Shown: positions 5,041 to 53,258, counted from the first letter of the stretch. The stretch: 64,000 bases of DNA from an uncultured Gammaproteobacteria bacterium (GCA_964355175.1 CAYHBZ010000001.1:304523-368522), one strand, 5' to 3'. Made by a program: numbers and translations. Notes: a model not told the origin generated them from the letters alone.

Positions 5041-5102
5041 CTCCGTTTAAAATTAAAATTTACGGCAGATAGCATAAAAATGCTGTCTTCATTATACCTT
5101 AT

Positions 5103-6510: not shown

Positions 6511-7116
6511 TTAATATTTTGGAGCTTCAAAAACTTGAATGCGATTTATAGGCCAACCGCGTAGCCAGGTACGACCAACAATGAGACTGGCGTCCACTTT
6601 TCCGAACCGGCGAGAATCAAAACTATTTTCTCGATTATCCCCCATCATGAAATATTGATCTTTGGAAAGTGACATATTTATTTCACCTTCAGTGACAACA
6701 CTTTTTGGGATATAATTTTCTTCAAGCAATAAACCTTCGGGGTGTTCGTTGTTGTAAATAGTTACTTTATTTTCCGAAATTTTTACGCGTTCACCCGGCA
6801 AACCAATCACGCGCTTGAGAAAATATTCTTGGTGATTGTTTGGATATTTAAATACCACGACATCGCCGCGTTTGGGCGTATGCAGACGGTAACTCAACTC
6901 ATCAATAATGAGGTACTCGTGATCATAAAAATTTGGCTCCATGGAAGCGCCTTTGACGTAAAATGGTTTGAAAAGATAATAGCGTACCAGCGCAATCGTA
7001 ATACCGGCCAGCAGAGCAACTTTGATAAATTCCAAAAGTGCTAATCCGGCTCCAGCTAGATAACGACGCAAATAACGCCACAAATTTGAATTAAATTGAT
7101 TTTTTTCGTCAGTCAT
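6511..7116 (-). CDS. lepB: Signal peptidase I
   Basis: An N-terminal TM segment is followed by GASMEPNF, RGDVVVFKYP, KRVIGLPGE and GDNRENSFDSRRFG, which match the S26 peptidase boxes. Confidence 0.85.
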   Translation of the reverse strand: MTDEKNQFNSNLWRYLRRYLAGAGLALLEFIKVALLAGITIALVRYYLFKPFYVKGASMEPNFYDHEYLIIDELSYRLHTPKRGDVVVFKYPNNHQEYFLKRVIGLPGERVKISENKVTIYNNEHPEGLLLEENYIPKSVVTEGEINMSLSKDQYFMMGDNRENSFDSRRFGKVDASLIVGRTWLRGWPINRIQVFEAPKY

Positions 7117-12088: not shown

Positions 12089-12097
12089 TGTGGATAA
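12089..12097 (-). promoter_or_regulatory. Perfect TTATCCACA (DnaA-box consensus) 20 nt upstream of the 16S promoter -35
   Basis: The plus strand reads tgtggataa, an exact 9-mer match. It directly abuts the trmD stop codon. Confidence 0.3.
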
Positions 12098-17474: not shown

Positions 17475-17483
17475 TGTGGATAA
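17475..17483 (-). promoter_or_regulatory. Perfect TTATCCACA box 19 nt upstream of the -35 of the 1472-aa gene promoter
   Basis: The plus strand reads tgtggataa, and the minus-strand context is CACTTATCCACA. Confidence 0.3.
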
Positions 17484-17570: not shown

Positions 17571-17954
17571 TTAGATTCCCAAGTCATCCACGGCGCTGGT
17601 GTCAATCATCGGTGCCGCACTTGCACTCTGCATAGGGCGAGGACCGCGACCGCCTACCGGCTCATTGATCTTTAGGTTCACGCGAGCATTGTGCTTGGCG
17701 CCTACGATCTTGAGCAAGGTGCGGATGGAGCGAGCGGTTTGGCCGCTGCGTCCAATGACATAGCCCATGTCGGCTGGATCGACATCCAAAGTAATGAGCA
17801 CACCGCGTTCATCAATGATACGGTCGGTCTTTACTTTGTCTGGGTTGTTCACAATCGCCTTTACAAGCGATTCAACAAACATCTGATCTGCTTCCATAGT
17901 ATTGTCGTTATATATTTCATTTCTACAGTCTGTCGACATGTGGAGGTATTCCAC
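17571..17954 (-). CDS. KH-domain RNA-binding protein (KhpA/YlqC-like) with a C-terminal extension
   Basis: FVESLVKAIVNNPDKVKTDRIIDERGVLITLDVDPADMGYVIGRSGQTARSIRTLLKIVG contains the KH GxxG core (GRSG). Its position next to rpsP is typical. The true start is probably an internal Met (MEADQMFVESL). Confidence 0.75.
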   Translation of the reverse strand: MEYLHMSTDCRNEIYNDNTMEADQMFVESLVKAIVNNPDKVKTDRIIDERGVLITLDVDPADMGYVIGRSGQTARSIRTLLKIVGAKHNARVNLKINEPVGGRGPRPMQSASAAPMIDTSAVDDLGI

Positions 17955-18005: not shown

Positions 18006-18060
18006 GTCATCCCGAGCGATAGCGAGGGATCTTTAGATTCCTCATTATATTCGGAATGAC
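18006..18060 (-). repeat. Palindromic element copy A (intergenic, between rpsP and the KH gene)
   Basis: The sequence is gtcatcccgagcgatagcgagggatctttagattcctcattatattcggaatgac. The termini and the inner gagggatct/agattcctc segments are mutually complementary. It has the same architecture as copies B and C. Confidence 0.6.
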
Positions 18061-18066
18061 AGCGAA

Positions 18067-18381
18067 TTACGCAATTTTTTTCTTCTCGGCCAATTTAGTA
18101 GCGCGACGCTTACTGATAAATACTGATTTTTTTGTTTTGCCTTTTACCAATCCAGCTTTCAAAAACAAATTGTGCAAAGTTGGAGAGGCCTGAGCGCCTT
18201 TACCAATCCAGTAAGTAATTCTTTCGGCATTTGGCAAAAGTTGATTTTCTTTGGCGTGTGGATTGTAAGTACCAACCTGTTCCAAATAAGTACCCCAAGT
18301 ATCCTTGGTCTTTTCAGAAACGATAATGCGATATGTGGCAAATTTATTTTTACCAATACGCTGTAAACGAATTGCTAACAT
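18067..18381 (-). CDS. rpsP: 30S ribosomal protein S16
   Basis: MLAIRLQRIGKNKFATYRIIVSE...GTYNPH matches the S16 N-terminal signature. Confidence 0.9.
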   Translation of the reverse strand: MLAIRLQRIGKNKFATYRIIVSEKTKDTWGTYLEQVGTYNPHAKENQLLPNAERITYWIGKGAQASPTLHNLFLKAGLVKGKTKKSVFISKRRATKLAEKKKIA

Positions 18382-28861: not shown

Positions 28862-30445
28862 ATGAAAAAAATACTTTTTTGGCTGTTATTGGTACTAAAT
28901 TTAGTCTATCCGCTGACCATTATATCCAATACCCTAGACGGTGATTTCGGTTGGCATCTGCGTTTTGGACAGGATATCCACACGCAGAGCTCTTTTCCCT
29001 ACCTCGATACCTACACCTATACAAAATATGGCGAACCTTGGACCAATCACGAGTGGGGCGGCGACTGGATTATTTACCAGGTTTATTCTCATCTAGGATA
29101 CTTCTGGATCAATATCATCGTGGCACTGGCCGGCGCTCTCGCTTTTTGGATTATCGGCAAAGCATTTATTAAAAAACCTGGAGTTTCTTTTTTGTTTTTT
29201 GCTCTGGCCTGCCAGATGGCCGTGTACCATATTTTCGCGCCACGTCTGGCGATGTTTTCGCAATTATTTGCCGCTTTGATTATTTTAATAATTGAAAAAT
29301 ATTCCTCCCGTCCGCGCGCGCTATACCTGATACCGTTTATTATCTGGCTGTGGTCCGTTTTGCACGGTAGCTGGATTTTGGGCTTTATTATTATGAATAT
29401 TTATTTGGGTTGTGCCGTGCTTCCATATATTGTGGGCCAAAAATACCAAAAATATTTTAATGAAGAAAAAAAGCCGCTTACTTTTATTTATCAGCTAATA
29501 GGGATTCAATTGCTGGCGGCAGTGCTAATTATAATCAATCCCTACGGCATAAAAATTTGGCAAGAAATCTTTCAGTATTTTGGACAAAATTACTACAAAG
29601 CCCACATTAGCGAATGGACACCGAGCTATGCTTATCCGGTGTTTCCAAAAATTTTGATTTTGCAGACCATTACCTTAGTATTGGTAATATACGGCTTTAT
29701 CAAACGCAAAGTAAAATTTACTTACCTGACTTTTTTCCTGGCCTTTTTTTACGCGGCCATGATGTACAAACGCCAAGCGATTTTTACCGCCCTGCTTTCC
29801 GCCCCAATATTATATTATACCGCCACTTTTATGCGGGAACAGATGACCAATTTAAAATTTTATAACTTTTTTATAAAACAAAAAGAAAAATTCTATTTTG
29901 TCGGAATAATTATCACGATACTTTTGATAATATTCTATGCCCGCCAAATGCACTATACCGATGATCCTTGGAATGACAAAATTCTTTCCTATAATAACGC
30001 TCCGCCCTACGAAGCGACCATATTTTTACAAAACTATACCGCGGGAAAATCAATAAAATTATTCAATGAATTCAGTTGGGGTGGATTTTTAAATTGGATG
30101 TTGCCAAATGCTCTGGTATATCTGGACGGCCGCGGCAGTGCCACCTGGATGCACGACAAAAATACCAGCATGCTACAACACTATATCGAACTCAAAGAAG
30201 AAGATAATGCCGTAAAAATAATTGAAGATACCGGGGCGGACTATATCATGTTACGCTATCCCAAATTTGTCATTAGCGGCATTCCCAGCTTCGCCGACCG
30301 ACATTTATTTGGTGATAATTTCAAAGAATATTTCGTGAATCATGAAGAAAAACTGAGGGAGAAAATTGACAATAGCGGTCACTGGAAAAAAATATATTCA
30401 GACAATCGCGCTAACATCTGGCAAAAAATTAATCCCGCGCCATAA
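28862..30445 (+). CDS. Polytopic integral membrane protein, possibly a GT-C-type glycosyltransferase
   Basis: More than 10 hydrophobic segments are followed by a soluble C-terminal domain. The start is placed at the ATG at 28862 (MKKILF). The functional call is only a guess based on architecture. Confidence 0.6.
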   Translation: MKKILFWLLLVLNLVYPLTIISNTLDGDFGWHLRFGQDIHTQSSFPYLDTYTYTKYGEPWTNHEWGGDWIIYQVYSHLGYFWINIIVALAGALAFWIIGKAFIKKPGVSFLFFALACQMAVYHIFAPRLAMFSQLFAALIILIIEKYSSRPRALYLIPFIIWLWSVLHGSWILGFIIMNIYLGCAVLPYIVGQKYQKYFNEEKKPLTFIYQLIGIQLLAAVLIIINPYGIKIWQEIFQYFGQNYYKAHISEWTPSYAYPVFPKILILQTITLVLVIYGFIKRKVKFTYLTFFLAFFYAAMMYKRQAIFTALLSAPILYYTATFMREQMTNLKFYNFFIKQKEKFYFVGIIITILLIIFYARQMHYTDDPWNDKILSYNNAPPYEATIFLQNYTAGKSIKLFNEFSWGGFLNWMLPNALVYLDGRGSATWMHDKNTSMLQHYIELKEEDNAVKIIEDTGADYIMLRYPKFVISGIPSFADRHLFGDNFKEYFVNHEEKLREKIDNSGHWKKIYSDNRANIWQKINPAP

Positions 30446-31157
30446 CCAGTCCATACACTTTTTGCGCTCCGGCGGATTTTAATACACGCGCACACTCCTG
30501 CATCGTGGCCCCGCTCGTGAAAACATCATCCACCAAAATAATATTTTTAGAGAGCGCGTCACGACCTTGCCAAACAAAAGCGCCATTTAGATTGGACAGG
30601 CGCTCAGCTCGATTTAATTTGGCTTGCTGTTTGGTAAATTTTATTCTCTGTAAATTGAGATCATCCAACTGAATACCCGGATGATCTTTTTTTAATACTT
30701 GAAAAATATTTTGCGCGATTAATTGCGCCTGATTGAATCCGCGCTCACGCCGACGCCGGCTATGTAGCGGCACGGGCACAAGTGTGGCATCACAGCTAGG
30801 CAGATTACCGGCTTGCCAAATAGTATTCAAAAATTCTGTCGTGATTTGAAGCCAAAGATTATTGATATCCGTAACTAGATTATACTTAAATTTTTTTATC
30901 AATCCACTCACCGCTCTATTATTTTGATAATTAAAAAAGGCGGCCACAGCTTCTAGACTGCTGGCCGCCTGACAATTGAGACAATTTTTGCCGTTTAAAT
31001 TTTTCAGATGACAAACTGGACAATAAAATTCTCCGCCGTTAAAACTTTGTATTATACAACTATCACACCACCACACACCCTCTTGATCGCAGCCCAAACA
31101 AAATATCGGAAACAAACAATCCTTTATAAATTGCACTAGCTCCCCTCCCCTAAACAT
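30429..31157 (-). CDS. comFC: ComF-family competence protein (ComFC, phosphoribosyltransferase domain)
   Basis: N-terminal Cys clusters are present (CLGCDQEG..C, CPVCH...CLNC). RGFNQAQLIA and ILVDDVFTSGATMQECARVLKSAGA form the PRTase motif. The start lies 4 nt after the upstream stop. Confidence 0.8.
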   Translation of the reverse strand: MFRGGELVQFIKDCLFPIFCLGCDQEGVWWCDSCIIQSFNGGEFYCPVCHLKNLNGKNCLNCQAASSLEAVAAFFNYQNNRAVSGLIKKFKYNLVTDINNLWLQITTEFLNTIWQAGNLPSCDATLVPVPLHSRRRRERGFNQAQLIAQNIFQVLKKDHPGIQLDDLNLQRIKFTKQQAKLNRAERLSNLNGAFVWQGRDALSKNIILVDDVFTSGATMQECARVLKSAGAQKVYGLVMARD

Positions 31158-31766: not shown

Positions 31767-33635
31767 TTATTTAGTTTGATTTTCAAATTCTTGTTTGGCG
31801 CGTTCGATCTCAAGCAACTGCTGCGGGTTGGTGGTCACCAGCTGATCTTCGGTATACGAAGCCACGATCTTGATAGCGGCATGTTTGAGACCGGCAAAAA
31901 ATATTCCTTCACCCGGAGCACTCTCCAACAATAAATATTTTTCACTATCCGTAAGCATGAAAACTTTTTGAATGTTGTCCACGGCGGCCGGAGATTGGCG
32001 GAGCAACAATTGCAAAGCCGAATTGGTCACAATCGCCTGTCCGTATTGGGAATGCAAGAAATCATTTACATCCTGCGTAATAGTCGTGACACCCAAATAA
32101 TATTTACGACAGCGTTTCACCAAAGCAAAAATAAATCTGGCGGAATCTTCGTGTTGCATCAGCCACCAGGCTTCATCAATTACGAGCACGCGCTTGCGAC
32201 GCTCGGAGCGCACCGTGTTCCAAATATAATTGATAATCGCGTAAATAGCGAGCGGACGCAATTCATCTTCCAAATCACGCACACTATACACCACCAACTG
32301 ATTTTTCATTTCCACATTGGTTGGCGAATTGAATAGTCCACTAAAAGTACCTTCGGTATATTTTTTCAATTTTAATACCAATTCGTTCGAGCCTTCCATA
32401 CCTTCGAGCACTTCCTGCAAATCTTGCATGATTGGCGCTTCGACAGTATTGAGATCCACACCGGATACGATATCTTTTTTGGCGTAAGTTTCGATGAGCG
32501 CTCTATCGATTACCGAATCCTGCTCAGTAGTAATACCACCAAGCATAATACGGAGTAATCCTTTCACAGTAATAACCGCGCTACGAATAATATCGTCGAC
32601 AGACAAATCCTGCTCCATTGGGCGAGGCAGATCAAATGGATTTACTTTACTCTCACTGCTCAAAGAAATATTAATATAAGTACCACCGACCGCGTCAGAG
32701 AGATGTTTATATTCCATTTCCGGATCAATCACAATCACTTCCAGGCCCATCATGAGAGAGCGCAAAATTTCCAATTTAATGGCATAGCTTTTACCGGCAC
32801 CGGAAGTAGCAAATACTACCATATTGGCATTCTGCATCGAAAAACGATCAAACAAAATCAAACTATTGTTGTGACGATTGATTCCGTACAAGATACCATT
32901 ATCGGAAGTAAGCTCGGCAGAAATAAATGGAAAAGACGCGGCAATCGGCGATGAATTCATGTTGTAGGAAATCATCAATTCATCATTGCACAGCGGCAAA
33001 GTAGAATTAAAACCTTGCTCAGCTTGATACAATACTTTGCGACTCATGATCAATTTACTGCCAAAAATACTTTCGATATCTTCGGATAACTGATCCAATT
33101 TTTCTTTATTTTTGGTATAAATAGTGACATAAAAAGCAAACTGAAAAAAGTGCTCTGTCCCCTGGGTTAGATTGTCGCGCAAGCCTTCAATATCACGCAA
33201 AGCGGTCTCACGAATTGGATCACGCGGCGCGCCCTTTTCGGCATCGGCGCTAATCTGCGCTTCGAGCGCACCTACTTTATTTTTTAATTGTTTCAAAATA
33301 ATTTCGGCTTTAATCGGATAAAAGAACATTGAAATATCCATATTCACCGACAAACCAATCACGGGAGAGCTCCAACCCACGGAAATATAACGCGGATAAT
33401 TCATGATGAAAAGCGTACGACAAAAAGTGGTGCCAAGCTGGATAAAATTGGACTCAATATTAAAAGCCGCCGGCGCGATAATATCACGCAACGACACCAC
33501 GCCCTCACGATAGACCTGCTCTTCTTGCAGAGTAATGAGTTCGGCAGCGGTAGCTTTTTCTAACTTGCTTTTATCTTTACTACCCAAACTCGCTTTATCG
33601 TTTTGTTTGGCAATGAATTGTGGTTTAAAGGCCAT
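31767..33635 (-). CDS. virB4: VirB4/TraC/PrgJ-family T4SS ATPase, C-terminal 622-aa part
   Basis: DIIAPAAFNIESNFIQLG..FCRTLFIMNYPRYISVGW is the VirB4 middle domain. VVFATSGAGKSYAIKLE is Walker A and RVLVIDEAWWLM is Walker B. TQDVNDF is also present. Confidence 0.85.
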   Translation of the reverse strand: MAFKPQFIAKQNDKASLGSKDKSKLEKATAAELITLQEEQVYREGVVSLRDIIAPAAFNIESNFIQLGTTFCRTLFIMNYPRYISVGWSSPVIGLSVNMDISMFFYPIKAEIILKQLKNKVGALEAQISADAEKGAPRDPIRETALRDIEGLRDNLTQGTEHFFQFAFYVTIYTKNKEKLDQLSEDIESIFGSKLIMSRKVLYQAEQGFNSTLPLCNDELMISYNMNSSPIAASFPFISAELTSDNGILYGINRHNNSLILFDRFSMQNANMVVFATSGAGKSYAIKLEILRSLMMGLEVIVIDPEMEYKHLSDAVGGTYINISLSSESKVNPFDLPRPMEQDLSVDDIIRSAVITVKGLLRIMLGGITTEQDSVIDRALIETYAKKDIVSGVDLNTVEAPIMQDLQEVLEGMEGSNELVLKLKKYTEGTFSGLFNSPTNVEMKNQLVVYSVRDLEDELRPLAIYAIINYIWNTVRSERRKRVLVIDEAWWLMQHEDSARFIFALVKRCRKYYLGVTTITQDVNDFLHSQYGQAIVTNSALQLLLRQSPAAVDNIQKVFMLTDSEKYLLLESAPGEGIFFAGLKHAAIKIVASYTEDQLVTTNPQQLLEIERAKQEFENQTK

Positions 33636-33638
33636 ATT

Positions 33639-34325
33639 TTATTCTTGTTCAATTTGCATCTTATCCATTGGCGCCATACGCTCGGTGAGAGCGATATCGG
33701 GATTATAAGTAGAGTACAATACTTCTACCAGAGACTGAGTGTCGAGGCGCACCACTTCCAGACCAATTCCGCGCAAACCAGACTCTACTTGGCGCACACG
33801 CTGATCTAAATCATATTTGCGTTTGGTGAATCTTTCCGCTTTTAGTTTTACCGTCACGGCCGGATGAAAAACTTCGCTCAAACGCGCCCAAAAACTTTTT
33901 TGTTTATTGGACAAAGGATCATAAGGCACCACTACATAAAAATTTTTGCTCATAATCTCCCCCATCTCGACAAGCTCCGACACAAAAGATCGATAGTCGG
34001 CAATCTGCGCGCGCAACAATTCATTGGTCTGTTCGCGCTCGCGTTTGAGCAAATCTTCCAGGTACGGCTTGATATATAATTCACGCGACTGAATTACCAC
34101 CTGCAAAGGGTGGTCCAAACCGTTGAGAAAACTCACATAAGCGGATACGATAGCGTTTTGTTCGTCTTCATTTTTCAAAGCAAAATTAATGCTCGATACT
34201 AACATTATAGCACGCATCGTGCCATCTTTCATCACCACGGTATCCTGTCTGATTTCTGAAACAGACAAAAATCTTTGGGCGGATGGTATGCTGGTTTTTT
34301 TTGCTGCCGCTTTTTTATTCTTCAT
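33639..34325 (-). CDS. VirB4 N-terminal segment encoded as a separate 228-aa ORF
   Basis: DTVVMKDGTMRAIMLVSSINFALKNEDEQNAIVSAYVSFLNGLDHPLQVVIQS follows, as I recall it, the N-terminal pattern of Gram-positive VirB4 proteins (Tn916 Orf16/PrgJ type). It is separated from the 622-aa ORF by TAA-AAT-ATG in the same frame. Confidence 0.55.
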   Translation of the reverse strand: MKNKKAAAKKTSIPSAQRFLSVSEIRQDTVVMKDGTMRAIMLVSSINFALKNEDEQNAIVSAYVSFLNGLDHPLQVVIQSRELYIKPYLEDLLKREREQTNELLRAQIADYRSFVSELVEMGEIMSKNFYVVVPYDPLSNKQKSFWARLSEVFHPAVTVKLKAERFTKRKYDLDQRVRQVESGLRGIGLEVVRLDTQSLVEVLYSTYNPDIALTERMAPMDKMQIEQE

Positions 34326-34331
34326 ATAAAA

Positions 34332-34784
34332 TTAATCTTCCGGTTTATAATAACCGCCGGTATTTACCGCCAAGGCCAAATCGCGCAGACGGTTATAGGA
34401 TAAATTTGGCACCTCCGCGATCTTTTCTACTAGCACCACCGTTTCCATTTTGCGCAATTGTTCCAATTCTTCTTTGGTGTCCATTTTATACCAGATGCGT
34501 CGACTCGGTCGGCGCAGTGTCTGAAACAAATTCAATAAAAAATAATGAAAAGACTGTCCGTTGATTTTTACAAAAGCCAAGATCAGAGAAAAGCTACCTA
34601 GAGTGGCTAGAGAGAAAATGAACAAAGCCATGTCCGCCAATTTAAAAGTAATAAATAAAATCAGTCCGGCAATTAGCAAGATCAAAAACTGACGCGTAGT
34701 CACCGGTCCAAAAATTTTATCCTCAACGTCAATAAATTGTGGCACTACAAACTGTTCCATATTAAATAGCCAACTCTTTTTCAA
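34332..34784 (-). CDS. PrgI-family (VirB3-like) small membrane protein
   Basis: VPQFIDVEDKIFGPVTTRQFLILLIAGLILFITF followed by a second TM segment is the PrgI-family pattern. The gene lies directly upstream of VirB4, as in Gram-positive T4SS loci. The likely start is the internal MEQF. Confidence 0.6.
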   Translation of the reverse strand: MKKSWLFNMEQFVVPQFIDVEDKIFGPVTTRQFLILLIAGLILFITFKLADMALFIFSLATLGSFSLILAFVKINGQSFHYFLLNLFQTLRRPSRRIWYKMDTKEELEQLRKMETVVLVEKIAEVPNLSYNRLRDLALAVNTGGYYKPED

Positions 34785-36914: not shown

Positions 36915-37963
36915 TGAAATTGATTATCGGATTCGCTGAAATATACCAACTCATCAGTTATTAATTTTTGCTCCTGCAAAATCGAGCTGAACTGGACTAA
37001 TAAATTTAATTGATCTTCATCAATCAAACTAACTTTACTTTTAACTACCGACAATAATTTTTTAATAAAATCAGGGGCTTGAGTTTTTAGCCAATCGGCG
37101 ACTGCGGTGGCACTGCCCAACCATTGGGTGAGATCCGGTAATGCTTGCAAAAAATTCAAATAGGTTGCGGATTTATCAATTTCCGCTTGCGGTTCCACCT
37201 TTTCTTCGTGCAAACATTTATCTTCTGTGATATTTTTCCAAATTTTTCCACTTACCAAAGAGTCGTAAATTACCAATATATATTCCAAAGCGGCTTTCAA
37301 CGGCGCATCTAAGCTGGTAACCTCGATAAATTGTCTAGCAAATTCTTCTACTTTTGTTTCTTCATTATCGGTTTTGAATTCATCCAGCATTTTCACCCAT
37401 TGAGAGATAGATTTATTATTTTTATCATCGAGATCGCCGACAATATTTTTATTTTCAGAGATATCGTCGGCAAATTTGCCGGCATCTTCTTTGTAAATAT
37501 TTATAAAACAATATTGGGCGAAGTAATTTCTAATACTTTCGATAACTTGTATCTTGCCAGACAACACAGCCAACAACAAAAATCTGGAGCCAAGTAAAAA
37601 ATCTTGACGCAAACTTTTCTGTTGAGCAAAATTCAAAAAACCAAGCCAGGCATAATACTTTTGATAAAACCAATTTTGTTCATCATTTAAAAAATCAAAA
37701 AATATTTTTTTATTAGACCAATCTTCCAAAGACCCGAGAATTTCACTATCTGCACCATCGTAGTAATCAGATTGATAATGGTACAAAGAAAACAGCAAAT
37801 TCAGCTGCACCTGTTCACTGGCCAAGACTGATTGATCTACATCAGCCCAATCTCTGGCGGTATAATCCGAGCTATTGTTTTCTAATTTACGCAACAAAAC
37901 CTGGCGCTCCTGCTCTGAGCGCTCTGGAAAAAAATTGGAAATTAATTCTTCGTAAGAAAACAT
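36890..37963 (-). CDS. Hypothetical soluble protein (357 aa) in the T4SS-like operon
   Basis: The ORF has no TM segment and is acidic. It is the gene immediately downstream of the VirB6-like gene. Confidence 0.6.
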   Translation of the reverse strand: MFSYEELISNFFPERSEQERQVLLRKLENNSSDYTARDWADVDQSVLASEQVQLNLLFSLYHYQSDYYDGADSEILGSLEDWSNKKIFFDFLNDEQNWFYQKYYAWLGFLNFAQQKSLRQDFLLGSRFLLLAVLSGKIQVIESIRNYFAQYCFINIYKEDAGKFADDISENKNIVGDLDDKNNKSISQWVKMLDEFKTDNEETKVEEFARQFIEVTSLDAPLKAALEYILVIYDSLVSGKIWKNITEDKCLHEEKVEPQAEIDKSATYLNFLQALPDLTQWLGSATAVADWLKTQAPDFIKKLLSVVKSKVSLIDEDQLNLLVQFSSILQEQKLITDELVYFSESDNQFHWNEKIFS

Positions 37964-40900: not shown

Positions 40901-42189
40901 TTGGCAAAATTTTGAACTCTTTCTACCGTATCTCCCAAAGGTGTCGCATTCCAAACCGCACTCTTGATACCACTGCCAGCGGCACTCACCGCTTTACTAC
41001 CCATATCTTTGGTCTTATTAAATGCCCACATACCGGCCGCTACACCAGAGCCAACCGTAGCCACTTTCTTGGCAAAATCCGTGGCCTTGCTCATCGCACT
41101 GCCACCTACTGTACCAAGCGACTGCGCGGTCTTGGCACCAACAAGTAAAATACCAATTGCGATAGCGAAGTTGGCAATTTTATCAAAACTCATCACCGCG
41201 CTAATACCCACGGTCGCGGCCGCGCCGTTAACTTTCGCACCCGGCATATTTTCTTGCGGAGCGGAATTATTCTCTTTGCTACTAATTTCAGAATTTATCT
41301 GACCACTGCCCACTACCGCAAATGACAGCCATAGGAAAAATACTACGACCGGACCCACGATGACATGATTACCAAACTCACTCCACCATTGCGAAGCATA
41401 TTTTTCGGTTTGCGGAATCACGCTGAGCACAAAAGCAAATGGCGACAACACAATCAAAATCCACAGCACCAACATGCGAGCCAAAAGCATAAATACAAAT
41501 ACGGCCATAATGCCCAAAGTGAGAGCGGCAAAACCAAGTGCGCCCACCGCGGCACCAAAAATTTCTGAATTACTGGTGAGACCTTGCGGACCAGTTTCGG
41601 GATTGAGAGAATAAATTTTATCCAAACTAAAAGCGTTGATCAAATTACCACCGGCCGTGGCGGCGATACCGTTTACAAAAGTAATCATTACCACCTGAGA
41701 AATATCAATAATCACGCCACAAATTATTCGACTGAAATTTACCAAAATAGCGGCAAAGAAAAACTTCACCAACATTTTTTTCCATTCGTATTGTTCTAGA
41801 CCCAAGATAGTACCAAAAGCCACCAGCAACAAAACCACCACAAAAAACATATTGGTAATATCACGCACCATCACCCAGCCTACCTGCACAGCGGTGGAAT
41901 TCAGATAGCCATTATAGCCGGCAATCTCAATAATAAACGACAAACAAAAAATCGCCAGACGAATCATCAAAGCCGCAGCGGCCAAGAGCATGGTCGTGAT
42001 TGCTTTGACAAAAGTATTAGGCTCAAAACCACCGGCGGCGGCCGGCTCGGCATACACCACATTTGTACCCATCACCGCATACACACCCAGACCCAAAACC
42101 AGCAAAAATACAAAAAGGGCCACTTGGTTTTTGTGGGCAGATAAAAAGTTATAGAGTTTAATTGTTCTCGCTTTAATACTTGAGAACAT
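37993..42189 (-). CDS. VirB6/TrbL-like polytopic membrane protein with a charged C-terminal extension of about 1000 aa
   Basis: The N-terminal 350 aa or so contain at least 6 TM segments (…MVRDITNMFFVVVLLLVAFGTILG…ILVNFSRIICGVIIDISQVVMITF…), as in VirB6/TrbL/PrgH-type channel proteins. The remainder is K/E/A-rich and looks like coiled coil. It is the first gene of the operon. Confidence 0.6.
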   Translation of the reverse strand: MFSSIKARTIKLYNFLSAHKNQVALFVFLLVLGLGVYAVMGTNVVYAEPAAAGGFEPNTFVKAITTMLLAAAALMIRLAIFCLSFIIEIAGYNGYLNSTAVQVGWVMVRDITNMFFVVVLLLVAFGTILGLEQYEWKKMLVKFFFAAILVNFSRIICGVIIDISQVVMITFVNGIAATAGGNLINAFSLDKIYSLNPETGPQGLTSNSEIFGAAVGALGFAALTLGIMAVFVFMLLARMLVLWILIVLSPFAFVLSVIPQTEKYASQWWSEFGNHVIVGPVVVFFLWLSFAVVGSGQINSEISSKENNSAPQENMPGAKVNGAAATVGISAVMSFDKIANFAIAIGILLVGAKTAQSLGTVGGSAMSKATDFAKKVATVGSGVAAGMWAFNKTKDMGSKAVSAAGSGIKSAVWNATPLGDTVERVQNFAKRQLESWKIYRSEGPRLKMEEEKDEHGNVKLDDKGNARMKFVNKKDENGKDIEGEYEYEDKDSRSWFQKNRYEARAKLIGSRKTLKKTEDQSKLQEELIDKRITAIPKGAFLRDMPDGFDRVAQGMLAAEKERSAAKTSEFQEYGRRATLESSRFKDGKFQYEKGSIAEQVVGHNERADRNKERTKELMSGTLEEYRKSGKGKQVVAAKVEAKFKAELSEKAAHLAEGGAKLHFMEHAGALLAKQAAIAAEEGTEHAEIEELEKKAAVAFSDTEDKKDENGKIIKHGGKGLLRKQAGAELGADTAKTQLSNNLTKAKHGFDEEAIKAELEAQEILESANNMHSEGSALKRTQLKAEQEELGKLSSEKNRLQAALGAADPSNPEELEAAKKAFNDFDVKNGSTIKAKEDSIETLQEEISSIDNNDQTLKDARKEAVQKARAKRTSSISWENSAAHAKETEEKNAYSKDHNYLLSEVEQEEVYKPRGITVPNEALSEGREYYRKRFTDMDYSTYTSNFGTNLLAMIQKRKDAKEGKGTGPTSADKNIMAAMLDHGVSKSWLDDGIWRAMAPDLKAEMQKNVADGGLGWQGKEFNVEKINDLFAVLSTGGDLEFAGMHKQVAKVMDYAVQEMGMSVAQFYDKLENQDFTGSELKTFGDKFGADSAPLKTITDKSKMAQYIKTQDDNQSQIQFVTNLRDEMAGGSHTENGGHADNIKSSRGKQRHVLVGAGIAQDGVLGEVNKLDVGNRAGKQSHSYINLDEGTGYATRTRGKAYRISRGDITSHLNHQKTTPRYLNHMAGLASTENVEDYFTEKDGLLINGKKANGSDSGRHNWAQKFSDDGIGLAGRYSEVKSGKRLGHIKNKEDALHQQTTNDWFNELVKDQLFTNPQDVLMTLAKKSQVDAQEAYQTGKMNITVMAKGKQEHITNISQLISLYNEGAFTDDGKAPKRQMAAFKPVEKGTAEKNKKDPTS

Positions 42190-42210
42190 GAAAATAAATT
42201 TACTGTCATT

Positions 42211-42239
42211 ATTATATCATAATTCAGCTAAGCGAACAA
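42211..42239 (-). promoter_or_regulatory. Putative extended -10 promoter for the T4SS-like operon
   Basis: The minus strand reads TTGTTC (42239-42234), a 17-nt spacer whose last bases give TGA, then TATAAT (42216-42211). Confidence 0.4.
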
Positions 42240-42264
42240 ACAAAACCCTCATCTCTCCAAACAC

Positions 42265-42273
42265 TTATCCACA
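42265..42273 (+). promoter_or_regulatory. Perfect TTATCCACA box in the divergent promoter region, 21 nt upstream of TTGACA (42295-42300)
   Basis: This is an exact 9-mer in the context CACTTATCCACA, the same extended context as the box at 17475. Confidence 0.3.
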
Positions 42274-42390
42274 CATTTATTTTTAATAAAAAAATTGACA
42301 GTGCTAGACCGATTTGTTAAGGTGAATTAAATGCTCTTTACACTGTGTGTTGAGCTTTTCGCTCACACCAACCACCCCCAAGAGGACGCC

Positions 42391-42714
42391 ATGAAGCTGC
42401 TCGTCAGTCTCACTTGCTTGGCGCTCTCCTGCGCCACCGAACCTCCCCCGACGATCTCGACGACGTCGAGTCTCATCACCACCGACCCGTGCCAGGGCAA
42501 ACAGTGGCTGGAAGAACATATCCTGGACTGCGGTCCAGGCAAATTCTACTGCTACCCCAAAGTGACTCAGCCGAAAAATGCCAACTGCCGGCTGATGTGC
42601 CAGACGCACTGGTACCCTATCAGCTGGGTCGAAGGCCAGGAGGGCGACAGCTACATCCGCATTCGCGACGACTTCACCGGAGATATCCTCCTGTGCCTCG
42701 TGCGAGCAAAATGA
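42391..42714 (+). CDS. Small Cys-containing secreted protein encoded in the high-GC island
   Basis: MKLLVSLTCLALSCA is signal-like. AGAGGA lies 6 nt upstream of the ATG. Codon usage is GC3-rich, unlike the rest of the window. I recognise no family. Confidence 0.5.
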   Translation: MKLLVSLTCLALSCATEPPPTISTTSSLITTDPCQGKQWLEEHILDCGPGKFYCYPKVTQPKNANCRLMCQTHWYPISWVEGQEGDSYIRIRDDFTGDILLCLVRAK

Positions 42715-42819
42715 GGTGACTCAACGGGGTTTCCGCCAAGGGGCTGACGCTAGCCGTCGGCTCCTGGCTCCCCAACTCATTTAGATAACGGCTTTAGGGC
42801 TGTTTTTTTATTTTTGGAG

Positions 42820-42828
42820 TTATCCACA
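42820..42828 (+). promoter_or_regulatory. Perfect TTATCCACA box between the two GC-island genes
   Basis: This is an exact 9-mer inside the AT-rich spacer of the island. Confidence 0.25.
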
Positions 42829-42905
42829 GAGATATTGTATTTTTATCAAATTGTGGCATACTAAAATAGTATGGGTAATAAATTACCCTCAATCTAGCCA
42901 AATGG

Positions 42906-42934
42906 TTGACAGAAACAACCGTTTGTGCTATAAT
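42906..42934 (+). promoter_or_regulatory. Consensus sigma-70 promoter for the second GC-island gene
   Basis: TTGACA (42906-42911), a 17-nt spacer, then TATAAT (42929-42934). Confidence 0.55.
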
Positions 42935-43018
42935 AAGCAATCGTTCTTTACAAGTGCTAATTTTGCCTATTTGGGCGAAATTGGCCAATATAACGAGAGA
43001 AGGAAATAAAAATGGGAA

Positions 43019-43072
43019 GAGATTGTGGTGGAATGTTTGTTTGCTAAGGCAAGCACACAGTCCACCACAATC
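43019..43072 (+). other. Perfect 13-bp hairpin in the 5' leader of the second island gene
   Basis: agattgtggtgga (43019-43031) pairs with tccaccacaatct (43060-43072). The left arm lies inside an 11-codon mini-ORF (ATG at 43009, MGRDCGGMFVC, stop 43042-43044) that is preceded by gaaggaaa. Confidence 0.5.
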
Positions 43073-43146
43073 TCGGACGCATGTTGCTCCAAGATAGTGT
43101 GGTCGGTTCTCACGAACCGCTAGCCTCTCTGTCTCAGGAGAACACC

Positions 43147-43554
43147 ATGCGCTACGCGCTCCTGGCCATCACGGCCGTTCTGTTCGTCGCCTGTGCGTCC
43201 GAAGCCGGAAATTCCGGCCCGGGCAACAGCTCCAACCAATGGCAGCCGACTGCCGACGCCGGGTCGCACAACGACTCCAGCGCCAAGCAGGCCGACAGCA
43301 GCTCGCAGCCGCAACCGGACCAGCAGGTCGTCGAAGTGAACGCCTGCGTGGACCTCAGCGTCAACGACGGCATCTACGACTGCCAGGACGGCAATCCGCA
43401 GACGACCATCGTGGCCAATCCGGAAACGTGCGAGTACCAGGCTGAAATGTGGTACTCTACGCCGGACAAGACCCAGGTCCTGGACGGCGCCAAGCGCGTC
43501 ATCGCCAAGGTCGGCAAGTACACGGTTGACTGCGTGCGCAAAGAGACGAAGTAA
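43147..43554 (+). CDS. Small lipoprotein-like secreted protein encoded in the high-GC island
   Basis: MRYALLAITAVLFVAC has a lipobox-like FVAC. AGGAG lies 8 nt upstream of the ATG. The mature part is S/Q/D-rich and then contains Cys. Codons are GC3-rich. Confidence 0.6.
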   Translation: MRYALLAITAVLFVACASEAGNSGPGNSSNQWQPTADAGSHNDSSAKQADSSSQPQPDQQVVEVNACVDLSVNDGIYDCQDGNPQTTIVANPETCEYQAEMWYSTPDKTQVLDGAKRVIAKVGKYTVDCVRKETK

Positions 43555-43703
43555 TGCAGAACTTCGTCGCCGGCAAACGCCGGTCCTTCCGCGAGCCCCC
43601 AGCTCGCCCTCCTCCTCTCGTGTCCGCTTCTGCATCGGCGCCATTCCCCATGGCGCCGCGGACACTTCCTTAGGATATTATTTTGTTAGTGTTTTGAGGA
43701 AAT

Positions 43704-43735
43704 AAAAAAATCTCGGTTTATGACCGAGATTTTTT
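43704..43735. terminator. Bidirectional intrinsic terminator
   Basis: An A-run precedes tctcggt (43711-43717), which pairs with accgaga (43723-43729), and a T-run follows. It sits between the island gene and the convergent 2649-aa gene. Confidence 0.6.
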
Positions 43736-43755
43736 GTTATTTTTAAATTATATAA

Positions 43756-46700
43756 CTATGGATTTTCTATTTTATTTACTGGCACAACTACTCTAGACTT
43801 AAATAAAGTATTAGAGTGAGAATTTTCAGATGTATCAGTATATATAGAATAAAAACTACACTCTTGCATTTTACCATCATAGCAACTACTTGTACCATCT
43901 GTACCTGCAGTTTCACTATCCACACAAGTACCATTACACCATCCCCAATTATCCAACACCTGAACTTTTGGTTGATAAACACAGCAACCGCCCAGTTTGG
44001 CATCATCCCATTTTGTCTTTTGAACACCACTGAGGACATCACAATTTTCATGCCAGATAGGAGCGCCTTCTTGGCCAGTACAATTATAATAAACTGTGGC
44101 GGTATATGGATGGAGATCACAGCTTTGATTTAGAATATATCCAAAGGCAGGAGCTTTGGTCTCATCAGCGGTACACTGAGGCAACAACTTGCCGTTACAT
44201 TCACTATCCATAGTACAAGGCACACTAGAACCGTTACATACACCGGCTTTACACATACCGCCTATAAAGTATCCGCGCTGATTCCAAAAACTACCATCAC
44301 TGGTTTTTTTGATATCACTTGGATCACCGGTACCCGGGTCAATAATAATTCTTCGCACCGGCATATGATCTGAGTCGGCATTATAGAAGAATTTGAAACT
44401 TGCTTCGTATGGCTTGGTGTCGATGACCAGATGATCAGTAGCGGATGCGGGCAATTTATTGTTAATGTTGAAACCATCCTGGAATATTTCCTGACATTTG
44501 CCGCTGGTGTCACAATCACCGACCGGATGTACTTGAGGAACTGATTTAGAAGGATCGTGGGCATCGCCATTATAATTTGTAGCTATATTAGTCACATCCA
44601 AATCTTTGGTAGTCAAAACCAATTTATCACTGGTGGTTGGCGATCTATATAATTGAGTTTTGTTATCAGAGAATATACTGATATTGCCAAACGGAATCTT
44701 AGCATAAACCTGCACGAGCAAACTCAGCGACTCTTTGATCTTGTCTACCAAAGGCTTACCACTGGTTGGGGCTTTGGAACTCATATTCTTTGGCAAACAT
44801 ACTTTCACCTGATCTCCAACACAACTATTTTCGTAACAAGCGGCATCAGTAGCACAACCTAAAGTACTGCTAACTACCCCATTGAAACTACAGTTACCTG
44901 CACAGAAGAAACCATTCTTTTCACAATTACTACTGCCATTGGCAGCATTACAGTCCAAAGCCATCTTTGGCGTGGTTGTACTACTGGTACAAGAGTTGGC
45001 TGAAAGATTACAAACCGAAGTATCGCCAAAAGCATTCTTACACTTAGTATTATCACCGGTACCGTCGGAATTTTTACATTTAAATTGACAAGTATTGTTG
45101 TTACCATGATTAGCACAAACGATATTGTAATTACAATTACTGTCTTGAGTACAACTGGAATAACTGGCAAGACTCCAGCGATCATAAGTTAAATTATTTG
45201 AGGTAAAACCTTTGTATCCTACAGGAGAACCTTTAGGACACATAGCTGTACTAAGCGGCTCTTCAAAAATTCCATTCGTGCCAAAACAAGAACGTAATAA
45301 ATACAACGGACTATTAGGGCTTTTGGTTTTAGAGTCATTCATGAAAGCGAACGGTGAGCTGGTAGCTTCACGAGTAAAATTCACTTTATTTTTATAAACG
45401 GCATCTACATTGGAAACATCTATCGTTTTGAAATCGCTTTTGGTATATTTCCACAACCTATCCGCCCAAGGTGCAAATTTTGTATCCAAACTGTCGAACT
45501 GGACATAGGCCTGGCAACCAATCTGAGTGTTTTGGAAACTTGACATAATGTTTGAATACCAAGTACCGTCCGGATAAGCTTTTGGTTCATCCGGCACACA
45601 GTGGGTATAACACCAATCTGGGTCATAATTATCACAGCCCTTAATTCCGCTAGCGGCTTTATAATCACTATGGAAACCTACGCCACAGATAGTGTGTGGA
45701 GATTCTTCAAAACCGTCATCAAGCGCAAGGGCAAACACACAATCAGAATCTGAATTATACACGTTAGCAGATGTATTAAAACATCTATCAAAACCACCCA
45801 AATCCGATCTGTAAATATTCGCGGCCACACAATACTTTGTTCCTTCCGGTAGTGCCGCGGCCGACTGTGGATTACTGCCATTGATATCCACTGATCCCTC
45901 TATTGAACCAAGTGGCAACCAACTCATACATGGATATTGTGGATCGTCCTTTGTACCACCAATTACTCTAGATTTATCATACTCCAAACAAAAACCTTTC
46001 CAACCATACAAATTTTGAATTTTATTATCTTTTATCTGACAGGTACCTCCGGCTTTTTCACATTCTCCTGGTGGCAATTGAGCCGGATTTTTAGCATCAA
46101 AAGCAACACTACATGGCTGATCATCTTTTGAACCACCTAAACATACACCTTTATTATCTTCAGCATACACTGTCTTCAAGGAAGAATCATTTTTCTGAGA
46201 AAAATACTTGACTACGGACTTATTACCAAATGTTACTTTGGCATAATCACAATCACAAACCTGAGCCGCCGGATCTCCGGCATCAAATACAGCACCACCA
46301 TTTTCAAAGCATTTATTTAATTTGGTGGAATCCTTCAAATTATTCGCAAAAATATTTGGAAAAGGAGAGTCTTTTTCCGGATAAGCGCGACAAGCCTTAC
46401 CAATACTAGAAGCGGCCAAATCACTATTTTTGCCATCATTACCTTGCAAACACCATCCATTTGTACAAACACCGTCATTTTGTGCACCACAAGATACAGT
46501 AGTTGTAGCTGATTTACAACCAAATTTATTACTACCACCCGCGCACTTTGTGACATCATTTCCACAAGGAATAAGCCTAAGCAATCTCCAATCAGGATCG
46601 GGATCAGAAGCTTTGGCGATATTAAATTGCCACAATTCCTCTACCGGATAACTTCCCAAAATAGACAGACCTACTAACTCTCTTCCTTTCCAGGACACAT

Positions 46701-52406: not shown

Positions 52407-53258
52407 TTATAATGTGGATATCTTTGATAGCTGCTCCCAATTAGCAACTGACAGCTCTTGCGCCCGCACTGTTTCTGAAAAGCCCATATTTTTTAGGGCT
52501 AATTGAAGTTTTTCTTTGTTTTGTTTGCCGAAATAAGGCAGAAGATTTTTTATCAACAATTTACGTTTCTGAGCAAAACCAATTTTCACCATTTGAAAAA
52601 ACTTTTTATTATATTCGGCATCAGGTCGTTTCTGATCTATTTTTATTTTTAATACGGCCGAGTCCACCTGAGGCGAGGGCCAAAAATTATTTCTATTTAC
52701 TTCCCCTACCATCTCCGCTTGGCCAAAATATTGCACTGCGATAGCCAACACTGACATATCGCCCGGCTTGGAACAAATACGCTGAGCCACTTCTTTTTGT
52801 ACCATTAGGGTCATCTCTTTTGGTTTATTGGATAAATCTTCCAAAAATAGCTTCAGAACCGGCGAAGTGATTTGATATGGCAAATTGGCCACCACTTTAT
52901 AATTTTTGGGAAATATTTTCGGATCGGCGCGCAGGACATTGCCCCAAATAATTTCAAAATTATCTTCTTGGCTTTGGGCCAAACGCGAGCTGATTTCTTG
53001 CCAATACGCCTCAAGTTTTTTTTCAATTTCAAAAGCCAGCAATTTTTTTACTTTCGCGGCCAGATCCAAAGTAAGGATGCCAAAACCAGGACCGACTTCG
53101 ATCACGGTATCTTTTTTATTTACTCCGCTCACAGCAATGATCATATCAATGACCTCCGGATTGATTAGATAATTTTGACCGTATTCTTTGGATGGTCGCA
53201 GCTGAAATTTCGCACAAAGATGTTTGAGATAATCAACATTAAAAAGTTTTTCATTCAT
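52407..53258 (-). CDS. rsmA: 16S rRNA (adenine1518/1519-N6)-dimethyltransferase
   Basis: YGQNYLINPEVID, VIEVGPGFGILT and ANLPYQITSP are KsgA/RsmA motifs. Confidence 0.9.
   Translation of the reverse strand: MNEKLFNVDYLKHLCAKFQLRPSKEYGQNYLINPEVIDMIIAVSGVNKKDTVIEVGPGFGILTLDLAAKVKKLLAFEIEKKLEAYWQEISSRLAQSQEDNFEIIWGNVLRADPKIFPKNYKVVANLPYQITSPVLKLFLEDLSNKPKEMTLMVQKEVAQRICSKPGDMSVLAIAVQYFGQAEMVGEVNRNNFWPSPQVDSAVLKIKIDQKRPDAEYNKKFFQMVKIGFAQKRKLLIKNLLPYFGKQNKEKLQLALKNMGFSETVRAQELSVANWEQLSKISTL

Follow-up and report, generated by a model that had tools for sequence, protein, structure and literature searches.

A G+C-rich pair of lipoprotein-like genes beside a type IV secretion system-like operon: probable inheritance across Magasanikbacteria rather than recent import

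Is a short, strongly G+C-rich island in a more A+T-rich bacterial chromosome foreign DNA, or can it belong to the lineage that carries it? The question is raised by a 64,000-nucleotide stretch (hereafter the window) of an assembly titled uncultured Gammaproteobacteria bacterium (GCA_964355175.1, CAYHBZ010000001.1:304523-368522), a piece of bacterial chromosome of about 41% G+C. In it two small open reading frames (ORFs), ORF1 and ORF2, lie between an operon resembling a type IV secretion system (T4SS) and the gene for a giant cysteine-rich protein. An initial annotation of the window took both coding sequences to be imports from a high-G+C host or partner cell that had come under native promoters. 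We compared the locus with its relatives and conclude that it probably consists of T4SS-associated, diversifying surface lipoprotein genes on a conserved expression platform, inherited across the Magasanikbacteria, a lineage within the candidate phyla radiation (CPR), and is not foreign DNA. As far as we could find, no such locus is described in the literature searched.

The change in composition is abrupt. Mean G+C content of the window is 0.408, with a standard deviation (sd) of 0.058 among 200-nucleotide (nt) windows. It rises to 0.603 in a first block (42360-42775) and 0.632 in a second (43060-43670), where the 200-nt maximum of 0.68 stands about 4.7 sd over the mean, and falls to 0.358 in the spacer between them (42780-43075). 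The initial annotation had described this contrast, and its hand counts were exact (39 G+C of 60 at 43141-43200; 18 of 60 at 37321-37380). Elsewhere in the 64 kb, 200-nt G+C exceeded 0.55 only in the 16S rRNA gene, the KhpA gene (17571-17954) and a short stretch near 35612. The anomaly lies mostly at third codon positions: G+C there (GC3) is 0.78 in ORF1 and 0.87 in ORF2, against 0.26-0.57 in the 35 other ORFs of the window, and the first and second positions of ORF1 and ORF2 are mildly raised. It is regional rather than purely codon-level, taking in the proximal 5' untranslated region (UTR) and most of the 3'UTR, and the coding strand is C-rich without strong skew (GC skew -0.04 to -0.16). 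The KH-domain gene for KhpA, on the minus strand, is the sole other protein-coding stretch to exceed 0.55 over 200 nt; its GC3 is 0.57 and that of the adjacent rpsP 0.33.

Abrupt borders are also what an assembly chimera would leave, had reads of a high-G+C organism been joined into a CPR contig. Two contigs from other samples bridge both island borders, and the locus is therefore not a chimera. One (L006; loci of relatives carry L numbers) matches 41960-43429 at 100% identity, across the left border and the spacer (Logan SRR24858483), and the other (L003) matches 42965-43942 at 99.9%, across the right border (ENA ERZ4201065). Misassembly, a concern of the initial annotation, was thus checked in independent assemblies. 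The same architecture is present in L001, L004, L008 and dozens of other metagenome-assembled genomes (MAGs), and we give a chimera virtually no credence.

Relatives share the gene order around the island: a T4SS-like operon (VirB4, TrsD/TraC-like, PrgI), a polytopic protein of 1275-1398 amino acids (aa), one or more divergent small genes and a convergent giant Cys-rich protein. The protein that heads the operon has a conserved N-terminal domain (79-80% identity among close relatives), and with this as anchor 80 syntenic loci were collected from GTDB species representatives; they represent 75 species, nearly all Magasanikbacteria by title or similarity. G+C-rich islands, defined as 200-nt windows more than 0.15 over the locus mean, were sought within 3.5 kb of the anchor gene on its upstream side. 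There were 38 (17 per 100 kb), compared with 2 per 100 kb within or downstream of the gene, a difference of about 9-fold. A lipoprotein detector blind to composition returned 35 candidates on the divergent strand in the same 3.5 kb. Thirty of the 35, in 28 species, were more than 0.10 above local G+C, with GC3 mostly 0.6-0.96; the other five look spurious. Background G+C in the species with G+C-rich lipoprotein genes is 0.37-0.49, and anchor protein identity among them is 40-80%. Genes of this class are high in G+C in at least 28 species whose genomes are A+T-rich.

The recurring proteins have 120-240 aa; their lipobox signal is followed by a linker rich in D/S/T/G/P and a small domain rich in Cys. 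They split into several BLAST families, and several of them share with ORF1 the pattern C-x3-[WY][LIM]-x6-C-x8-C-x10-C-x3-C...C. One locus (L011) carries two tandem paralogous lipoprotein cassettes on the minus strand (3442-4011 and 5097-5588), each with its own structured leader and with near-identical 3'UTRs, which indicates that the whole unit of UTR, coding sequence and UTR duplicates as a module. Many of the GTDB representative MAGs with a locus of Magasanikbacteria type are titled 'uncultured Gammaproteobacteria bacterium' (L009, L019, L020, L024, L025 and others); these titles are probably placeholders or mislabels.

Searches for a donor returned only members of this lineage. A word-indexed protein search found three homologues of ORF2, including a Candidatus Magasanikbacteria MAG protein at 75% identity, and two of ORF1, one at 48%. 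A family-profile search of 5.8 billion proteins found six, all of Magasanikbacteria lineage, and an exhaustive search of 1.84 billion representatives with an ORF2-profile hidden Markov model (HMM) found eight. All of these homologues (3 + 2 + 6 + 8) are small lipoproteins of the same lineage and architecture. Plasmid and phage blastn searches and scans of IMG/VR viral contigs and JGI metagenomes gave no match. No integrase or transposase was found in the neighbourhood and no tRNA gene nearer than 28.7 kb, and the flanking repeats were only short, A+T-rich and chance-like. Among the hallmarks of genomic islands, atypical composition was present, and sporadic presence, a donor homologue and mobility signatures were not.

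A recent import of both coding sequences from a high-G+C host or partner, followed by capture of native promoters, would account for the strongly atypical composition and GC3, for the relative (L001) that is without ORF1, and for an excess of GC-to-AT changes at third positions, as expected under amelioration. The claim is not supported by the comparison, however: genes of the same G+C occupy the same syntenic site in at least 28 Magasanikbacteria species that span 40-80% anchor identity, and no homologue outside the lineage was found in any of the protein, plasmid, phage, IMG/VR or JGI collections searched. The G+C-rich tract takes in conserved native UTR structure, and neither an integrase nor a tRNA junction nor flanking insertion repeats were found. 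The initial annotation had itself stated that homologues of similar G+C, ubiquitous in the lineage, would speak against transfer, and such homologues are what we found. We regard recent import as very unlikely. The locus is like an island acquired by horizontal gene transfer (HGT) in its atypical composition, its shortness, the orientation of its genes opposite to their neighbours and the variable presence of one cassette. It is unlike one in keeping to one syntenic site across the lineage without mobility genes, scars or donor homologues, and with G+C that is maintained, not ameliorated. It cautions against equating compositional islands with HGT.

As read from the sequence, the locus comprises two monocistronic genes for small lipoprotein-like proteins with conserved non-coding flanks (Table 1). 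The flanks contain a TTATCCACA box and a consensus promoter; both UTRs are structured, and the 3'UTR carries a terminator. The initial annotation had proposed two plus-strand genes, of 107 and 135 aa, that run against their neighbours and have GC3-rich codons, Shine-Dalgarno (SD) sites and several cysteines, the second product being lipoprotein-like. This account held for both ORFs; both products are lipoprotein-like, and a separate promoter and terminator serve each gene. The 107- and 135-aa forms were chosen over extensions of 127 and 157 aa by SD position, promoter position and orthologue lengths. The 127-aa call for ORF1, from 42331, was rejected; it begins at the predicted transcription start (near 42330), and orthologues do not use that start.

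ORF1 consists of a predicted signal (MKLLVSLTCLALSC/ATEPPP), a short T/S/P linker and an all-beta mature domain with six cysteines, and its start codon follows an SD site (AGAGGA-N5-ATG). Its promoter was missed by a consensus scan owing to the weak -10 hexamer. L004 (P0005) and L008 carry orthologues in the same place that are 47-49% identical in aa sequence and retain the cysteines (dN 0.43-0.46, dS 0.8-1.4), and the lipobox Cys (LALSC/A) is invariant among them, as judged by eye and a simple pattern. The nested 3' hairpin GGGG..GCCA[GGCyGAC..GTCGGCy]TGGC..CCCC is kept in L004 and L008 despite a changed inner stem. The whole ORF1 cassette is missing from L001, where one TTATCCACA promoter region directly adjoins the other. 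No Pfam or NCBIfam family matched ORF1, and its AF2 model (pLDDT 53) contains beta strands.

ORF2 consists of a predicted signal (MRYALLAITAVLFVAC/ASEAGN), an N/S/Q/P/D-rich linker and a C-terminal domain with four cysteines, behind an SD site (GGAG-N8-ATG). Its lipobox, LFVAC/A, corresponds to LLSAC/A in L004 and MFNAC/A in L001, and the Cys is invariant in orthologues by the same criteria of eye and simple pattern. Two orthologues are 75% (P0002) and 64% (P0003) identical. The counterparts in L004 and L008 share the signal and linker alone; their C-terminal domain is unrelated and Cys-free, and still 0.60-0.65 G+C. Similarly, the eight HMM relatives recombine a conserved N-terminal module (MRY..L..NAC/ASEAGN..) with differing C-terminal domains. 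A family scan of ORF2 gave only a sub-threshold match of the signal and linker to SP_0198 (21 bits; cutoff 100). Both gene products would sit on the outer side of the cytoplasmic membrane, anchored there and held together by disulfides.

Upstream of the ORF2 coding sequence, the initial annotation had described an A+T-rich spacer with host-style promoters. The native character of this regulatory DNA was upheld, but the region holds more than promoters: a conserved and highly structured 5'UTR lies within it. The leader folds with a minimum free energy (MFE) of -96.5 kcal/mol (z = -9.5) and contains a stem at 42956-42986 and a long hairpin, P1, at 43019-43074; its distal segment pairs with the SD site and start codon in the MFE structure. 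An RNAalifold consensus over eight species has 45 pairs, 15 with compensatory changes, and P1 shows compensatory changes among the window, L001, L004, L008-L013 and L015. The 3'UTR is also strongly structured (MFE -81.8 kcal/mol, z = -10.1; 38 pairs over nine species, 15 compensatory). The hairpin ggcgccat/atggcgcc of the initial annotation is present in it. The inner stem of hairpin 3, GGCGCCAT/ATGGCGCC in the window and GCCGGTCT/AGACCGGC in L004, is wholly rewritten between species and still forms a perfect 8-bp stem. Neither UTR matches Rfam: a scan of the window at gathering thresholds returned rRNA and tRNAs alone, and a permissive scan of 42150-43800 gave chance-level hits, the best relevant one being CcsR1 at 16.7 bits against a cutoff of 65. 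Both conserved UTR structures are candidate new cis-regulatory RNA motifs.

The strength of this UTR structure could suggest that structured non-coding RNAs make up the G+C-rich blocks and that the ORFs arise only from composition. G+C patches in A+T-rich genomes are often RNA genes, and the 16S rRNA gene is the other large patch here. The called frames nonetheless have GC3 far above GC1 and GC2, and between orthologues they remain intact, with indels in threes, cysteines and signal peptides kept and dN/dS below 1. The coding sequences fold with z of only -1.6 and -3.3, and no Rfam hit was found in them. We consider this reading extremely improbable.

A purine-rich motif in the 5'UTR (ACGAGAGAAGGA) is complementary to a CU-rich motif in the 3'UTR (TCCTCCTCTCGT), and the two appear to pair, closing the mRNA around the variable coding cassette. 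The corresponding motifs are CAAGAGAG(AG) and (CT)CTCTCTTG in L010 and L015, CAGAAAGAGAA and TTCTCTTTCTG in L012, CCCAAGAG and CTCTTGGG in L011, and CCCAAGAGAAAAAT and ATTTTTCTCTTGGG in L013; L001 and L008 have a U-A pair where the window helix has A-U. In a hand-anchored alignment of ten species, 86.7% of cells were paired compared with 67.2% in shuffles (0 of 500 as good), 10 of the 12 pairs had changed on both sides, and the covariation score was 0.628 compared with 0.19-0.28 for slid controls. Duplex-energy and longest perfect k-mer tests over 26 genes were noisy, because of promiscuous pairing of purine and pyrimidine tracts and A/T runs, and supported the helix only in the leader-bearing clade. 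In the RNAalifold consensus the purine motif has another possible partner nearby, the invariant GUUCUUU at the 5' terminus.

Pairing between the ends of the message could control translation, ribonuclease access or both. In this the locus would resemble the Staphylococcus aureus icaR and Bacillus subtilis hbs mRNAs, where a pyrimidine-rich, anti-SD-like stretch of the 3'UTR that contains CCUCC can pair with a purine-rich, SD-like stretch of the 5'UTR. It is unlike them in that its purine motif is located 150-250 nt upstream of the main start codon, beside a possible upstream ORF (uORF), and is not the gene's own SD site; the evidence here is comparative. The possible uORF (43013-43048, plus strand) has an SD site (AAGGA) and an ATG at 43013, encodes MGRDCGGMFVC and runs into the 5' arm of P1. 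Relatives (L004, L008-L011, L015) have uORFs at the same place with GTG, TTG or ATG starts and differing lengths, and L001 has none or one of three codons. The peptide is not conserved, so that, if the uORF is functional, the act of translation would be what matters.

Within the locus, conservation is lowest and mosaicism greatest in the coding sequences. Between the window and L004, L008 and L001, identity is 0.74-0.89 in the promoter region and 5'UTR and 0.78-0.94 in the distal hairpin and terminator, compared with 0.66-0.75 in flanking coding sequence. For the 5'UTR by itself, identity to relatives is 0.74-0.88, and dS of the flanking coding sequence is approximately 1.1-1.3. The lipoprotein coding sequences are 0.45-0.67 identical to those of L004 and L008, and the ORF2 coding sequence is 0.76-0.81 identical to that of L001. 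Synonymous divergence of the neighbouring gene is approximately 0.9-1.3, and neutral non-coding DNA should therefore differ far more than the leader does. Adjacent segments conflict in their nearest relative: the leader is closest to L004 (0.88), and the ORF2 coding sequence and 3'UTR are closest to L001 and L002 (0.76-0.88 for L001 compared with 0.45-0.67). This indicates a recombination mosaic. For ORF2, dN/dS is 0.29-0.60, compared with approximately 0.13 for the neighbouring gene. The proteins would diversify through substitutions and also through homologous recombination in the conserved UTR flanks, which would exchange the coding sequence like a cassette.

Programmed hypervariation would also produce a variable C-terminal domain followed by conserved G+C-rich sequence and hairpins. 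The locus would then be the target of a diversity-generating retroelement (DGR) or a vls-like expression site, and its downstream G+C-rich hairpins a homing or recombination signal. CPR genomes are rich in DGRs, and Borrelia vls is a G+C-rich lipoprotein locus in an A+T-rich genome. However, the 64 kb contain no second copy of any island segment, silent cassette, tandem repeat or phase-variable tract, and no reverse transcriptase is present among the window ORFs; we rejected a DGR or vls-like mechanism on the lack of repeat, reverse transcriptase and silent copy within the window. Orthologue differences include indels, fall at all codon positions and are not adenine-specific, and the C-rich coding strand is without strong skew. 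Hypervariation of this kind is highly improbable. The likeness to Borrelia vlsE/vls and Mycoplasma Vlp/Vsp lies in a conserved 5' region and signal peptide ahead of a highly variable remainder and, for Borrelia vls, in a locus far more G+C-rich than the A+T-rich genome. The difference lies in the missing silent array, tandem repeat and phase-variable tract in the 64 kb, the lack of a G-rich strand skew, and variation that is documented here between species, not within a clone.

The G+C of the locus appears to be maintained and not merely frozen. Three ORF2 orthologues show 29 G-to-C or C-to-G differences at third positions and still have GC3 of 0.81-0.90; third positions turn over yet stay G or C. 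Codon bias from high expression was rejected as the cause on the GC3 values of rpsP (0.33) and KhpA (only 0.57). If the locus were a landing site that received cassettes again and again from a G+C-rich pool so far unsampled (a plasmid or phage of Magasanikbacteria, for example, or the hosts), the cassettes would have the composition of that pool. The mosaic locus, the modular domains and the presence or absence of cassettes among relatives agree with refilling, the conserved flanks could be recombination arms, and an excess of GC-to-AT changes fits decay after import. Yet no member of such a pool appeared in the plasmid, phage, viral-contig and protein collections searched, every relative found has the same lineage-specific signal and linker module, and parts of the conserved UTRs are themselves G+C-rich. 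We judge refilling unlikely. On the reading that the locus is inherited, G+C would be held up by a locus-specific force, either mRNA selection (for stability or translation control together with the UTR platform) or GC-biased gene conversion at a hot spot. Three sources of the G+C are thus candidates, which we rank tentatively: mRNA selection first, then GC-biased gene conversion at a locus prone to recombination, and last the refilling from outside. Extreme local G+C that is maintained and not acquired offers a natural case for weighing the first two of these in bacteria.

The initial annotation had placed the genes beside a T4SS-like operon, and VirB4, TrsD-like and PrgI proteins were found there. 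The operon, chromosomal and of the monoderm-conjugation type, matches the published T4SS of Patescibacteria, an MPF-FATA-like system with VirB4, TrsD and PrgI that is chromosomal near ksgA and dnaA and usually without a relaxase (PMC12102498). That system is widespread and, in the one case tested (Southlakia), essential for epibiotic growth; its substrates and specificity factors have not yet been identified, and no T4SS-associated lipoprotein is mentioned in that report (PMC12102498). A VirB6 identity for the operon's first protein was rejected, there being no Pfam, NCBIfam or PDB sequence match, and the protein was used as a positional anchor only.

VirB7 and the entry-exclusion lipoproteins TrbK (RP4) and YddJ (ICEBs1) are small T4SS-associated proteins, and YddJ targets the VirB6 homologue ConG. 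ORF1 and ORF2 are like them as small, fast-evolving lipoproteins beside T4SS genes, here divergent from the polytopic first protein of the operon, and like specificity or exclusion determinants in being polymorphic between close relatives. They are unlike VirB7, TrbK and YddJ in lacking sequence or fold similarity to them, and we know of no report of a lineage-wide G+C anomaly or conserved structured UTRs for the genes of those proteins. The T4SSs of Patescibacteria are mostly without relaxases, so that exclusion of the classical conjugative kind is not obviously applicable. VirB7 belongs to the outer-membrane core of diderm systems, and monoderm-type systems are without that core (PMC12102498).

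The lipoproteins would work with the T4SS at the cell surface as specificity factors, in recognition of host cells or, in an exclusion-like manner, of kin; they would be co-regulated with the T4SS and under diversifying selection. On a rough split, a putative role in host recognition or adhesion stands slightly ahead of TrbK/YddJ-like exclusion or kin recognition, and a surface antigen unrelated to the T4SS is less likely. Host interaction or immunity is a plausible role for the products, as a candidate only. The locus provides a concrete candidate for a T4SS component that recognises host or kin, and it encodes the most rapidly diversifying proteins of the region.

Several observations weigh against an inherited, T4SS-associated lipoprotein locus on a conserved platform. 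About half of the syntenic loci have no G+C-rich lipoprotein gene within 3.5 kb, the operon's first protein is without detectable VirB6 homology, and the lipobox of ORF1 (A-L-S-C) is atypical at -3. The genes lgt and lsp are not in the window, where signal peptidase I (6511-7116) is the only such enzyme. Structure models are poor (pLDDT 34 and 53) and Foldseek against PDB returned noise only, so that function is read from context. The window helix between the UTRs has seven perfect pairs (11 of 12 in all), tests on perfect k-mers reach individual significance in L012, L013 and L015 only, and the pair counts given above depend on hand anchoring of the alignment. Compared with dinucleotide shuffles, the coding regions have little additional structure (z = -1.6 and -3.3), a result that makes it harder to explain the G+C by RNA structure alone. 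At third positions of ORF2, GC-to-AT changes outnumber AT-to-GC changes by 25 to 7 under majority-rule polarisation, which is biased in that direction; the excess could reflect A+T-biased mutation opposed by some force, or decay after import.

A more ambitious version of the inherited locus, which we hold to be possible but doubtful, is a dedicated platform. Paired UTRs would act as recombination arms around an exchangeable cassette, a process specific to the locus, for instance strong GC-biased gene conversion at a hot spot of recombination or targeted mutation, would drive GC3 to 0.7-0.96 in genomes of approximately 40% G+C, and the lipoprotein would determine the host or kin specificity of an essential CPR T4SS. 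Even more speculatively, codon usage may be adapted to a G+C-rich host in which the genes would be expressed once the T4SS had transferred them.

The repeated boxes that the initial annotation noticed in promoter and spacer DNA are indeed present, as TTATCCACA at 42265 and 42820. This sequence, which we take to be the perfect DnaA-box consensus, occurs four times in the window compared with 0.67 expected, the other copies being on the minus strand at 12089-12097 and 17475-17483. Three of the four lie approximately 20 nt upstream of a -35-like hexamer and face the downstream gene, including one in the 16S rRNA promoter region. The copy at 42820 is approximately 77 nt upstream of the ORF2 consensus -35, with only a weak TTGTGG about 22 nt off. 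Upstream of the operon's first gene and facing away from it, an exact box stands in 18 of 75 species, and 36 of 75 have one if a single mismatch is tolerated, an enrichment of approximately 20-fold; the exact boxes are 59-118 nt from the first start codon of the operon, apart from one locus at 292 nt. The box may be the site of a general promoter-proximal regulator, or may reflect proximity to oriC. Seven loci (L009-L015) have a second box, TTGTCCACA, behind TTATCCACA at the T4SS locus. Of the two palindromes near the ORF2 promoter, the second (GGGTAATaaATTACCC) was also found by the scan for promoter and terminator signals.

Table 1. Coordinates of the locus and of neighbouring features, numbered from the first nucleotide of the window.
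Feature	Position	Strand	Remarks
TTATCCACA box 1	42265..42273	+	75 nt from first start codon of T4SS operon; 21 nt upstream of ORF1 -35
ORF1 promoter-like site, TTGACA-N17-TAAGGT	42295..42323	+	read from sequence; kept in L004, L008
ORF1, predicted lipoprotein, 107 aa	42391..42714	+	G+C 0.58
ORF1 G+C-rich 3'UTR hairpin and intrinsic terminator	42715..42812	+	terminator stem 42787-42804
TTATCCACA box 2, head of ORF2 control region	42820..42828	+	invariant in L001, L004, L008
Two conserved palindromes, GGCATACTAaaaTAGTATGgg and GGGTAATaaATTACCC	42855..42888	+	5' of ORF2 -35; candidate operator sites; (near-)invariant alignment columns
ORF2 promoter, TTGACA-17-TATAAT	42906..42934	+	extended -10 TG; 12/12 consensus match
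ORF2 5'UTR, approximately 205-210 nt	42941..43146	+	conserved, highly structured; from consensus promoter
Purine-rich 5'UTR motif ACGAGAGAAGGA	42993..43004	+	complementary to 43610-43621
ORF2, predicted lipoprotein, 135 aa	43147..43554	+	G+C 0.63
ORF2 3'UTR	43555..43740	+	three G+C-rich hairpins, CU-rich motif, A+T-rich hairpin (approximately 43666-43700), bidirectional terminator (43705-43735)
CU-rich 3'UTR motif TCCTCCTCTCGT	43610..43621	+	complementary 11/12 to 42993-43004
T4SS-like operon first gene, 1398 aa	37993..42189	-	polytopic N-terminal domain; VirB6-like position; synteny anchor
PrgI	34332-34784		operon gene
TrsD-like	33639-34325		operon gene
VirB4-like	31767-33635		operon gene
ComF	30429-31157
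T4SS-pilin-domain protein, 692 aa	2710-4788	-	PF18895 and bacterial Ig-like domain (Big_5); approximately 27 kb from T4SS operon
Giant Cys-rich protein, 2649 aa	43756..51705	-	convergent; bidirectional terminator common with ORF2; no Pfam hit
KsgA	52407-53258
Second giant protein, 2283 aa	55996-62847	-	PKD, Ig-like and fn3 domains; the two giants flank KsgA

The window has housekeeping content, with the 16S rRNA gene, three tRNA genes and genes for HisRS, signal peptidase I, TrmD, KhpA, ClpP, RecQ, KsgA, Sua5 and RF-1. The giant Cys-rich protein is syntenic in L001, L002 and L004, and its C-terminus is kept beside the lipoprotein locus in relatives. A small palindromic repeat family (GTCATTCCCGTGnAAACGGGAATC and variants) is inserted in the loops of UTR hairpins, in that of P1 and in that of the A+T-rich 3'UTR hairpin (L010-L013), and related copies lie between KhpA and rpsP in the window (18015-18070); it looks like a REP- or MITE-like element (repetitive extragenic palindrome; miniature inverted-repeat transposable element) of the lineage. 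The ORF2 cassette lies between two identical copies of a 12-nt direct repeat, AGGAAATAAAAA, on the plus strand, at 43001-43012 just after the purine motif and at 43697-43708 just before the terminator; it is A-rich, with no obvious covariation in relatives, and is probably due to chance.

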